This document shows, piece after piece, positions 13,887-17,156 of a stretch of DNA of 64,000 nucleotides. The position numbers and the translations under genes are program-made. Location of the stretch: the IMG/VR virus record IMGVR_UViG_3300044608_000911; one strand, 5' to 3'. Every line of letters starts with the position of its first letter. Position 1 is the stretch's first letter. The notes below the pieces were generated by a model, which saw nothing but the letters and a program-made list of their open reading frames with translations, was not told the origin of the DNA and made no database searches. The DNA is from an uncultured virus (IMG/VR IMGVR_UViG_3300044608_000911) (Duplodnaviria; Heunggongvirae; Uroviricota; Caudoviricetes).

Positions 13887-13958
13887 AGCGGACAATCGGA
13901 TTCGAACCGACGACATCTAACTTGGAAGGATAGCGTTCTACCACTGAACTATGTCCGC
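13887..13958 (-). tRNA. tRNA-Gly(TCC)
   Basis: GCGGACATAGTTCAGTGGTAGAAC...CTTCCAA...GGTTCGAATCC...GTCCGC; no encoded CCA. Confidence 0.95.
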
Positions 13959-13984
13959 GAGGTGGGGGATGTCAACCCCCCGTG

Positions 13985-14076
13985 CTAGGCTCGCCACCTA
14001 GTTTTTACTGAACTAGGAAACAGGCGGGAGAGAGTCCCATCCGCACCACCAATTTTTTTAGGAAATTGGAAACCTA
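13985..14076 (-). ncRNA. structured RNA with two pseudoknot-UGGYG units (resembles wcaG RNA motif)
   Basis: Two stems CCAATTT/AAATTGG and CCTAGTT/AACTAGG each followed by TGGYG, central GGGA/TCCC hairpin. Confidence 0.65.
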
Positions 14077-14283
14077 CTTCGGTTCGGAAACGAAGTTGTT
14101 AATGATATCTGCTTGTTTGAGAACTTCATTCAAAGTAGGAAATTCTGGAAATTCGAGATCCAGTTTTCCAGTCTTTTCATTCCACTCTCTAGCAGTATCA
14201 TATTTAACGCAGAACTCATCGTTCAGCATATTATATGCTTGCTTGAAAATTTCAAAGCGAAGCTCGTAAGGTGTTTTGGACAT
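14074..14283 (-). CDS. small phage protein (MSKTPYELR...FVS)
   Basis: ATG 14283 after AGGAG RBS and CA repeats; track start 14364 unlikely. Confidence 0.8.
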   Translation of the reverse strand: MSKTPYELRFEIFKQAYNMLNDEFCVKYDTAREWNEKTGKLDLEFPEFPTLNEVLKQADIINNFVSEPK

Positions 14284-14325
14284 AATTAATCTCCTGTGTG
14301 TATGTGTGTGTGGTATCGAGGGGGG

Positions 14326-14411
14326 TCCCGACCAGGGTTGTTTACGTGTCTCCATCACGGGCATTTACGGGGATGACTCCACCAGGATAAGTTTTAAGTC
14401 ATTCCAGGACT
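14326..14411 (-). ncRNA. two tandem hairpin/pseudoknot RNA units
   Basis: AGTC-CTGGAAT-GACT-TAAAAC..CC-TGGT and CGTG-ATGGAGA-CACG-TAAAC..CC-TGGT. Confidence 0.55.
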
Positions 14412-14736: not shown

Positions 14737-14972
14737 TCAAATTTACGATAGGCACCCACTTCAGGGTCTGGATCTAACCACTTGGTATACTCAGGATCTT
14801 CCAAGCATACATCAAGTTGCATCTGGTTGTCAAGGAAATACATGTCAGTATAACGCTTGGTCCATTCATTAAACTTTTGAATACGGTAATCTGGTTTACC
14901 GTTGATCTCTAAAAGACCACACTGAACATAGCGATAAGGAGAACGTTCAAGAATTACAGTGGGTTTGGTCAT
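14733..14972 (-). CDS. hypothetical cyanophage protein
   Basis: ERSPYRYVQCG...NGKPDYRIQK...KWLDPD. Confidence 0.75.
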   Translation of the reverse strand: MTKPTVILERSPYRYVQCGLLEINGKPDYRIQKFNEWTKRYTDMYFLDNQMQLDVCLEDPEYTKWLDPDPEVGAYRKFD

Positions 14973-15229
14973 GAAGCATCGTCGTGATCAAAGTAATTAT
15001 CCCACATATCGTCGTCGTTGTCAAGGGGTTGTGCCACTTTAGAAACCGTCTTCAGATTAATTCCAGCTTCTTCAACTAAGGATGCTGGAATCATGGCAAC
15101 AGCAGACCCATCTTCTCTACGAATGATGTATGTTTCACCATTTTCCACACGCTCCATAATTTCGTCAAAGTTTTTTTCCAGTTCTAGTTCTGTGATTTCG
15201 ATTATTTCTTCAGACATTACAGCAGACAT
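14969..15229 (-). CDS. Phd/YefM-family antitoxin-like protein
   Basis: ITELELEKNFDEIMERVENGETYIIRREDGSAVAMIP matches Phd N-terminal pattern; acidic tail. Confidence 0.7.
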   Translation of the reverse strand: MSAVMSEEIIEITELELEKNFDEIMERVENGETYIIRREDGSAVAMIPASLVEEAGINLKTVSKVAQPLDNDDDMWDNYFDHDDAS

Positions 15230-15587: not shown

Positions 15588-17087
15588 TCAGAACCTAAAG
15601 GTCGTCTGGATCACACCACCATAGTTGTCCGAAGCATTCTTCAGACCTTGGTTGTTAGACACATAGAACACAGAAGGAGTGATGCTGATGTTGTCGCTAA
15701 CCTTGTAACGATAGAAGGTTTCCCACATAATAGCTTTCTGACTATCAGCAAGAGAAGCAGCGTTGCCAGGAGCACCGATGGCGAAACCAGCAGCGTTACC
15801 CTTGGCGAATACATCGCTCCACTGAAGACCAGCAAACCAAGTCTGGGAGTTGGTAGCACCAGTAGGAGTGGTACGACCAGCAGCATTCAGGCTAACATCG
15901 TTCCAACCATAAGCACCAGAGATCGAAGGTACGATACCAGAAGTCTTAGGTTGCCAGTAAGCGTTGATGGCATAACTGTTAGAAGATTGACCAGCAGCAA
16001 GGTTACCAGAACCACCGTTGATAGCGTTGAAGGTACGAACACGGGTTCCTTCTGTACCATAACGATAACCGAAAGCAATACCGTACTGGGGAGCACGATA
16101 ACCGATTTGTGCCAGAGTATTCAGAGCACCAGTCTCATCAAATTGACCCTTGGAACTATCCGAACCGTTCTGGGCAACATAGTTCAGACCAGCAACAATA
16201 CCACCTTTCTTGCCAGGTTGAGCATACTGAATACCAAAACCAGAACCAGTTGCCTTGTTATAAACTCCAGGAGCGCCAGCAACTTGGAAGAAGTCCAGAA
16301 TGTCGGACTTGTAAGCAGAAGGAGTCCATGCCATCTCTGTGTTACGAACCAGAGCACCAGCAGTCAGAGTCACGCCCTTAGAAAGTGCAGGGAAGCTGTA
16401 GTAGAGACGATCAAGTTGTACTTGATTGGAAGTACTCTCTGCTTTATCAAGTTTGAACAGCGAAGAAGAAGAACCGAAAGGTTGTGAAGAGAAGTTGCCA
16501 GAACGCAGACGAGTCTTCAACAGATCCTTACCAGTGAAGGAGGTGTCAAAGTTCAGGCGAACATCATAGTTGAAAGCGGTGTTACCAACGTTAGTATTGT
16601 TGGCAAGACGGGCACCTTCTACACCACCGAGAACGAAAGTTGCTTCACCACGCAGTTTGGTAGTAGTGGAAAACTGCTGTGCCTGAAGAGCAGCGGTTTG
16701 CTTCTCCAGTTTAGCAACACGACCACGAAGAACAGTCAGTTCATTCTGGAACTCATTCATCAGACGAGAGAGTTCATCGGTCACTTCAGTCACACGATCC
16801 AGACAAGCATTCAGAAGTGCTGCTGCCTCAAAACGGGTCATTGCCTTACCACCAAGGTAAGTTCCGTTTTCATAACCAGCAACGCAACCATAACGCTCAA
16901 CAAGATTGCTAAGTGCCTGATAAGCCCAATCCGTAGGTTGGACATCAGAAAGTTGTTTGATGCTTGAGACTTGTTCTGAGGAAGTGTATTGATTGACTGC
17001 TGCCATATTGAGATCTGCGGCATTCGCAGCAACAGGAGCAACCATTCCCAGAGCAACAGGTGCGAGCATCAGTTGTTTGAGTTTCAT
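15588..17087 (-). CDS. cyanobacterial SLH-domain porin (Som/OprB-type, iron-uptake porin family)
   Basis: Signal peptide, SDVQPTDWAYQAL...RFEAAALLNACL SLH domain, FSTTTKLRGEA, C-terminal TTFRF; likely start MKLKQ at 17087. Confidence 0.93.
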   Translation of the reverse strand: MKLKQLMLAPVALGMVAPVAANAADLNMAAVNQYTSSEQVSSIKQLSDVQPTDWAYQALSNLVERYGCVAGYENGTYLGGKAMTRFEAAALLNACLDRVTEVTDELSRLMNEFQNELTVLRGRVAKLEKQTAALQAQQFSTTTKLRGEATFVLGGVEGARLANNTNVGNTAFNYDVRLNFDTSFTGKDLLKTRLRSGNFSSQPFGSSSSLFKLDKAESTSNQVQLDRLYYSFPALSKGVTLTAGALVRNTEMAWTPSAYKSDILDFFQVAGAPGVYNKATGSGFGIQYAQPGKKGGIVAGLNYVAQNGSDSSKGQFDETGALNTLAQIGYRAPQYGIAFGYRYGTEGTRVRTFNAINGGSGNLAAGQSSNSYAINAYWQPKTSGIVPSISGAYGWNDVSLNAAGRTTPTGATNSQTWFAGLQWSDVFAKGNAAGFAIGAPGNAASLADSQKAIMWETFYRYKVSDNISITPSVFYVSNNQGLKNASDNYGGVIQTTFRF

Positions 17088-17156
17088 AAATGTTTTTGTT
17101 CTATAGTACATAACGAGTTACCGTACAATTAATTGAGGTACGGTCACGTCTGGCAG

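Follow-up and report, generated by a model that had tools for sequence, protein, structure and literature searches.

What are the four tandem pseudoknot-like RNA units that flank a small gene in the genome of an uncultured virus, and on which partner would they act? A preliminary description of the locus saw in them decoys or antitoxin mimics. The window, i.e. the whole analysed stretch of 64,000 nucleotides (IMG/VR record IMGVR_UViG_3300044608_000911), comes from a T4-like cyanophage. It carries six tRNAs and matches to PHROG families, and all 23 phage records matching the region belong to Synechococcus phages or cyanophages. The four unit strings were recovered letter for letter on the minus strand, with UGGY directly 3′ of each core, and the array was confirmed to run into tRNA-Gly(UCC), whose start at 13958 lies 27 nt past the last tail (Table 1). 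Each pair had also been said to start on a UAG stop codon. Modules 1 and 3 indeed overlap UAG codons (14412–14410 and 14076–14074, respectively), but UAG is not specific, as the stop overlapped by the array was UAG in 16 and UAA in 5 of 21 loci. A Phd/YefM-like antitoxin gene is located upstream of the array at 14969–15229; the arrays of DSL-LC02 and DSL-LC03 likewise have antitoxin-like genes ahead of them. A phage-borne cyanobacterial SLH+OprB porin is encoded at 15588–17111 and is overlapped by an antisense ORF of 343 codons.

Table 1. Features of the array region, positions given in nucleotides of the window.
Feature	Position	Strand	Remark
Module 1 compact pseudoknot core (4-bp S1, 7-nt loop, A-rich linker)	14385..14411	-	overlaps UAG of upstream gene
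Module 1 tail UGGUGGAG and hairpin	14358..14384	-	8-nt complement of tRNA-Ala/tmRNA 3′ end
Module 2 compact pseudoknot core	14335..14359	-	
Module 2 tail UGGUCGGGA and hairpin	14317..14334	-	complements tRNA-Pro 3′ end, 8–10 nt
CA-rich leader and AGGAG ribosome-binding site of inserted gene	14284..14316	-	
Inserted 69-aa gene	14074..14283	-	family-less; predicted two alpha-helices
Module 3 H-type pseudoknot, UUU core	14049..14076	-	Rfam wcaG first half; overlaps UAG of small gene
Module 3 tail UGGUGCGGAUG and hairpin	14024..14048	-	11-nt complement of one tRNA-Leu 3′ end
Module 4 H-type pseudoknot, UUU core	13997..14023	-	Rfam wcaG second half; drawn in 2010 alignment
Module 4 tail UGGCGAGCCUA	13986..13996	-	8 contiguous nt complement cyanobacterial tRNA-Arg(CCG) 3′ end
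G/C hairpin with TTGACA box, without U run	13964..13981	-	site where most relatives carry terminator and embedded promoter
tRNA-Gly(UCC)	13887..13958	-	

The Rfam check assigned the downstream pair to the wcaG RNA (RF01761), with a match at 13983–14077 on the minus strand that scored 80 bits against a gathering threshold of 42 bits. The upstream pair matched no Rfam family above chance and gave no wcaG covariance-model match at E ≤ 10; the second slot of the model needs a UUU core. Rows of the 2010 wcaG seed carry near-identical compact cores in their first slot, like module 1, and the seed alignment (PMC2864571, supplement file 5, parts 181–184) already annotates the second pseudoknot. Both the core and the tail types of the upstream pair occur in the seed and within the same arrays. 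We therefore read the upstream pair as a compact core of the wcaG module type, and all four units as tandem pseudoknot-UGGY modules linked to wcaG. The upstream pair had also been suggested as a possible member of the abiF family (RF03085); no abiF match was obtained at E ≤ 10, and S-CREM1 carries an abiF element that, compared by eye, forms another type of hairpin. The view of the units as type III antitoxin or pseudo-ToxI mimics was not supported either, since Rfam gave no ToxI match, the cores are 36–64% identical and tails are never repeated within an array. PF13958 (ToxN family) had no match in three related records, where the control was equally silent; a phage decoy would need no cognate ToxN gene nearby. 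Finally, no Rfam match to the T-box (RF00230) was found, and the modules possess neither a Stem I specifier loop nor an antiterminator/terminator switch. By sequence, the four units are genuine modules of the orphan cyanophage wcaG RNA.

The folds were assessed in 200 related loci: 80 came from a search with the small protein, 119 from a wcaG pattern in which one tail is fixed, and the last was S-CREM1. A structure-only, tail-blind pseudoknot descriptor recovered exactly modules 3 and 4 in 500 nt; the same descriptor on 40 shuffles gave 0.78 matches per 500 nt, and UGGY followed 0 of 31. Across the related loci, UGGY follows 107 of 109 distinct UUU-loop pseudoknots, compared to UGG after 2 of 124 in shuffles, which bears out the H-type pseudoknots proposed for the downstream pair. 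The proposed compensatory changes were likewise seen: both S1 and S2 of the UUU-core pseudoknots vary with compensation, and S1 is complementary in 58 of 102 cores (shuffled mean 17.7, maximum 31; these counts ignore kinship). Compact-loop hairpins numbered 131 in total, 7 of them without a UGG tail, the remainder corresponding to 94 cores; UGGU is present on 91 of the 94, compared to 7 of 81 in shuffles. Loop position 2 complements linker position -4 in 79 of 79 distinct compact cores (56 C:G and 23 U:A), and loop position 5 complements linker position -5 in 47 of 47 long-linker cores, kinship being ignored in both counts. The stem, loop and A-rich linker described for the upstream pair are thus present, but the pairing of the loop GG with the linker CC has no covariation support because it is nearly invariant. 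The compact upstream core has long-range covariation of its own, and its exact fold, as derived from these alignments, remains provisional. The hairpin after UGGN mostly begins at base 5 or 6.

The small gene does lie between the two pairs, as the preliminary description had it, but its position there is an accident of insertion, and gene-less arrays are common. Contiguous four-module arrays with no gene between the modules occur in S-CREM1, DSL-LC02, DSL-LC03 and S-PM2. Related arrays were also found in contigs from four sequencing runs, one of which joins 14073 to 14314 without the gene; in ten sequencing runs, only 5–9% of words were present. The contiguous arrays and the gene-less join therefore identify the small gene as an insertion into a four-module array. 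Among 80 loci with homologues of the small gene, modules are located upstream in 25, downstream in 21, on both sides in 21 and on neither side in 55; with 55 of 80 homologues devoid of modules, the small protein was rejected as their dedicated partner. No PHROGs, Pfam or NCBIfam family was found for the 69-aa product, a fold search gave nothing at E ≤ 0.001, and its matches in the ESM Atlas were to unnamed viral clusters only. Its CA-repeat leader (14284–14316) is kept upstream of the gene whether the latter lies within an array, follows tRNA-Gly or has a promoter of its own, the three contexts observed, and accompanies the gene with or without modules. We conclude from the sequence comparison that the locus represents a T4-like cyanophage's wcaG array with four modules, into which a gene was inserted.

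The organisation of the arrays was analysed across the related loci. Four main tail classes were found among 113 distinct arrays, and in none of the 112 multi-module arrays does the same class occur twice (shuffled mean 83, minimum 69). The module order varies between arrays, and the UGGUGGAG (Ala) tail occurs on either core type (49 vs 50). The non-redundancy of the tails may partly reflect one ancestral four-domain RNA. In S-PM2 (L841:938-1030) and four further arrays (L093, L104, L109 and L114), the Leu and Arg modules are separated by an additional module whose UGGUGG-type tail is variable. The wcaG motif covers a window of two modules in a variable array of 2–5. Arrays are also present in cultured systems, i.e. 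S-PM2 (Synechococcus WH7803) and S-CREM1 (CB0101).

Arrays begin at stop codons. Arrays whose final module is of the last type number 92. An intrinsic terminator follows 78 of these within 75 nt, compared to 20 of 400 random windows, and a sigma70-like promoter lies behind 48; of the 14 terminator-less arrays, 9 lead into a tRNA. Such sites place the arrays, as predicted from sequence, at the 3′ ends of transcripts. A regulated gene with the array in its 5′ UTR was not found in the window, where the array leads into tRNA-Gly, and in DSL-LC03 a terminator and an own promoter separate the array from the GDP-mannose dehydratase gene, the gene that fits the name of the motif. The 2010 paper scored wcaG as cis-regulatory and probably a switch (PMC2864571), and in some split arrays (such as L084, L108 and L140) a second inserted gene starts about 10 nt past the GGGAG of the Pro tail, which is paired in a hairpin; here a module may have a cis use. 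A metabolite riboswitch or other cis switch for the downstream gene is nevertheless very unlikely, since the terminators at array ends argue against a 5′-UTR riboswitch, as do the promoters behind arrays, the tRNAs after most of the remainder, the DSL-LC03 arrangement and the presence of the same tail on unrelated cores. Action in trans, as had been proposed, is thus likelier than a cis switch, but the likelier partner is a tRNA and not a protein.

This partner is suggested by the tails. By sequence comparison, each module tail is UGGN followed by 4–7 bases that complement the NCCA end of a tRNA and the 3′ strand of its acceptor stem. As a tail dictionary we used 471 tRNA ends called by ARAGORN, with CCA added, from loci that were not selected by tail; the tRNAs matched by the Ala, Pro and Leu tails lie on viral contigs from mixed hosts. 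In this dictionary, UGGUCGG complements tRNA-Pro in all 26 ends carrying a match, the module 1 tail complements Ala/tmRNA in 10 of 10 matching ends (Ala 9, tmRNA 1), and UGGUGCGG complements Leu in both of 2 matching ends. Exact complements of the full 11-mer occur for Leu (1) and Pro (4), whereas 0.7% of control UGG-words have an 11-nt match. At least 9 nt are matched by 19 of 35 distinct tails, which are related to each other, compared to 6.9% of controls. A T-loop scan with the Pro end returned tRNA-Pro in 33 of 37 distinct matches; with the Leu end, 16 of 29 were tRNA-Leu, and Met and Val matches were in a shifted register. The UGGCGAGC tail was assigned to cyanobacterial Arg(CCG). Of 120 metagenome matches to the Arg-type end, 67 were tRNA-Arg, 5 overlapped other tRNAs and 48 had no tRNA call. 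Four are Arg(CCG) genes of one type, one of them adjoining a cyanobacterial sigma factor; the remaining Arg(CCG) genes, beside recF or ppc, we infer to be picocyanobacterial. Both common Arg tails are one base off the cyanobacterial Arg(CCG) end, with 8 nt paired by the tail in the window. A seed variant tail, UGGCGCGGCAUG, has 10 nt in common with an Arg(CCU) end when compared by eye.

The register of the complementarity is that of a T-box, in that UGGN complements NCCA with N matching the discriminator: the base N is U with Ala, Pro and Leu tails, C with Arg tails and A with the Thr-type tails of other phages. Positions in tRNAs follow the general numbering. At the G3-U70 wobble of tRNA-Ala, the tail has A opposite U70 in 93 of 93 cases and is thus a complement of the 3′ strand, not a copy of the 5′ strand. 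At the G2-U71 wobble of tRNA-Arg, the GAGC variant has A opposite U71, again complementing the 3′ strand. In the Pro tail of DSL-LC02, U replaces C at the first Pro position and still pairs with G72. The conservation of Arg tails ends after nucleotide 11 (92% at position 11 and 51% at position 12), which equals NCCA plus 7 bp.

Such fixed tails bear directly on the proposal that the units titrate a host RNA-binding toxin or protein that recognises pseudoknot-UGGY. A decoy of this kind would account for an invariant UGGY beside interchangeable cores and for the positioning of arrays for action in trans, and it fits the antitoxin-like genes just upstream, here and in DSL-LC02 and DSL-LC03, as well as the lone abiF RNA in the S-CREM1 tRNA cluster, 700 nt from the array. 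However, it leaves unexplained the correspondence of four fixed, non-repeated tails to tRNA identity and discriminator, the cores do not form repeats, and Rfam matches to abiF and ToxI are absent, so we regard it as quite unlikely. Improbable, too, is a role in blocking nucleases or in processing, in which the modules would stabilise the 3′ ends of mRNAs or mark boundaries within tRNA operons, and the tails would fit tRNAs by chance or direct RNase P-type cleavage. The start of arrays at stop codons, their finish in a terminator or tRNA, and single modules that directly trail tRNA or tmRNA genes in other phages agree with such a role, which may be a secondary property of the modules, but a roadblock needs no isotype-specific, non-redundant tail, and the stop in conservation at nucleotide 11 would be unexpected. 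The tails also share the form of retroelement primer-binding sites as generally known, i.e. UGG plus an acceptor complement, and modules 1 and 3 overlap UAG codons. Priming of reverse transcription by tRNA or signalling of stop-codon readthrough is still extremely unlikely: RVT_1 had no match in three related phage records (96% complete, complete genome and 44% complete), with the control matching 3 of 14 genomes, and the overlapped stops are UAG or UAA, with extensions of 13–47 codons that are unconserved.

Modules were also found outside the wcaG-selected loci. Among 598 such loci, 53 strict pseudoknots were found, of which 21 terminate in UGG and some belong to further wcaG arrays; the tails of these 21 include matches to Thr and to Ala(GGC)/tmRNA, and one tail complements a tmRNA end over 15 nt. 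This last tail belongs to a module of another phage that sits after a tmRNA-like end (L408, module at 329, reverse strand) and complements the tmRNA end of L428, while the neighbouring end in L408 itself is matched over only 7 nt. L428:272 is a permuted tmRNA with a module in its intervening segment, and L408, L428:272 and L834 all have wcaG-type modules beside tmRNA genes or with tmRNA/Ala-type tails. In three loci of other phages (L353:625, L380 and L391), modules directly follow tRNA-Ala or tRNA-Glu, and the tails of this group are UGGA-GCU (Thr-type), UGGC-GGUG (Asp/Ser-type) and UGGU-GAAG. In S-CREM1 (L081:1633-2144), a manA RNA abuts tRNA-Leu and tRNA-Asn, and the lone abiF RNA precedes tRNA-Gly; rather than cis elements, both seem to be independent RNAs that are freed when the tRNAs are processed.

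The modules were cofolded with 432 tRNA minihelices. For module 1, Ala was best (median -3.9 vs -1.6 kcal/mol) and the minimum-energy fold was a strand exchange, and for module 2, Pro was best with 16 of 20 top ranks. Module 3 reached -9.5 kcal/mol with its cognate Leu, yet Leu was not first in the pooled set, and for module 4 (Arg) only a 4-bp toehold was predicted. Permutation of tail nucleotides 5–11 was a weak test, in which p reached only 0.04 for both Leu and Pro and was 0.21 for Ala. Several results weigh against the tRNA reading of the tails. The tail-tRNA matches are short (8–11 nt), the Leu and Pro tails resemble each other, and the Leu tail also fits tRNA-Gly acceptors with a mismatched discriminator, 28 of 35 GCGG-type ends being Gly. 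The two Arg tails have matches of only 6–7 nt in the unbiased set of tRNA ends, and three exact-fitting Arg(ACG) matches look eukaryotic, unlike host tRNAs. The Leu and Arg tRNAs of the phage itself match the tails over only 5 nt. Selectivity for host over phage tRNAs, by which phage tRNAs would escape, was rejected as a general property, because the phage's own Pro tRNA and the Ala tRNA of a close relative match over 8 nt. Host/phage ratios of amino-acid usage were 1.84 for Leu, 1.82 for Arg, 1.21 for Pro and 0.80 for Ala, based on only 2,492 cyanobacterial residues; the S-CREM1 codon table was excluded from this comparison, as it gives stop codons at 10–20 per thousand. A scan of genome contigs for host tRNAs returned two MAG loci, both non-cyanobacterial. 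A UGC-anticodon tRNA (G003:C1:154097) does not possess the G3-U70 alanine determinant and is possibly mischarged or a decoy. A 1.6-Mb MAG (G004) with 118 tRNA matches and a cyanobacterial-type porin contig is probably a chimeric bin.

Taking both sides together, we consider it likely that the modules are tRNA 3′-end-binding RNAs with T-box-like stacking on the pseudoknot. The last helix strand of the pseudoknot continues straight into the tRNA-complementary tail, and the exposed UGGN, single-stranded between pseudoknot and hairpin, would pair with the tRNA NCCA as a toehold. The next 4–7 tail bases would then invade the acceptor stem, the acceptor 3′ strand being captured by branch migration, and the 3′ arm of the module hairpin would take up the displaced tRNA 5′ strand; in module 1, a CCCC arm could take the displaced 5′ GGGG. 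With A76 stacked on the S2 helix of the pseudoknot, a bulky aminoacyl group would be disfavoured, as in T-box discriminators. Stacking on the pseudoknot probably favours uncharged tRNA, a preference made plausible by T-boxes, which likewise pair with NCCA, stack A76 and reject aminoacyl groups sterically (PMC7583486).

The folds, the modular arrays, the tail complementarity and the predicted position at transcript 3′ ends are evident from sequence. The ability of the tails to pair with tRNA ends suggests that the phage may employ the modules as tRNA catchers, and not as a switch responding to a metabolite or a decoy for toxins. For the purpose, our tentative first guess is a trans-acting trap for uncharged tRNAs that would dampen the stringent response or a tRNA-sensing defence, since uncharged tRNA triggers ppGpp, a threat to phage replication (PMC6359870). 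The next most likely purpose, though an unlikely one, is the removal of tRNAs to retune translation, and the remaining probability falls to protection of tRNA ends or charge sensing in cis. It is quite possible, if short of probable, that wcaG arrays as a whole are a trans-acting panel of tRNA traps, with one host tRNA type (Ala/tmRNA, Pro, Leu or Arg) per module and charged tRNA excluded, which would silence uncharged-tRNA alarms or remodel the tRNA pool; other tails would target tmRNA and tRNA-Thr in unrelated phages, making the modules a natural programmable anti-tRNA device.

How do these modules compare to known systems? The wcaG RNA (RF01761; Weinberg et al. 2010, PMC2864571) is itself known, having been listed from 2010 onwards among the orphan candidate riboswitches, and modules 3 and 4 form a full-length member; in contrast to its description, the arrays analysed here are usually followed by a terminator or tRNA and not by a regulated gene. 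The complementarity between tails and tRNAs is the new element. It is not mentioned in the passages of the 2010 paper that were examined, and no paper linking wcaG to tRNA binding was found in searches of full texts, mainly open-access ones. The analysis of the tails thus gives wcaG concrete candidate partners. The T-box discriminator (RF00230; PMC7583486) is similar in that NCCA is bound by a 4-nt element immediately 3′ of a helix that could serve A76 as a stacking platform. Unlike T-boxes, the modules lack Stem I, the specifier loop and the antiterminator, would read tRNA identity from the acceptor stem by strand invasion, and occur several per RNA, probably acting in trans. In primer-binding sites of retroviruses and LTR retrotransposons, UGG leads into a sequence that complements one tRNA at its 3′ end, whereas the tails here are only 8–11 nt long and address four tRNAs in tandem, and no reverse transcriptase was found in the three related phage records. 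Type III antitoxins (ToxI, AntiQ) and the abiF RNA (RF03085; bioRxiv 10.1101/2025.04.15.648962) are also tandem small structured units, pseudoknots in the case of ToxI; the antitoxins are near-identical repeats upstream of a cognate toxin gene, while the modules differ from each other, have distinct tails and have no toxin gene behind the array. If the tRNA-binding reading is true, wcaG would represent an RNA-only viral action on tRNAs, distinct from cleaving or supplying them, and, after the T-box, the second type of natural RNA able to recognise which tRNA it meets and possibly whether that tRNA is charged.
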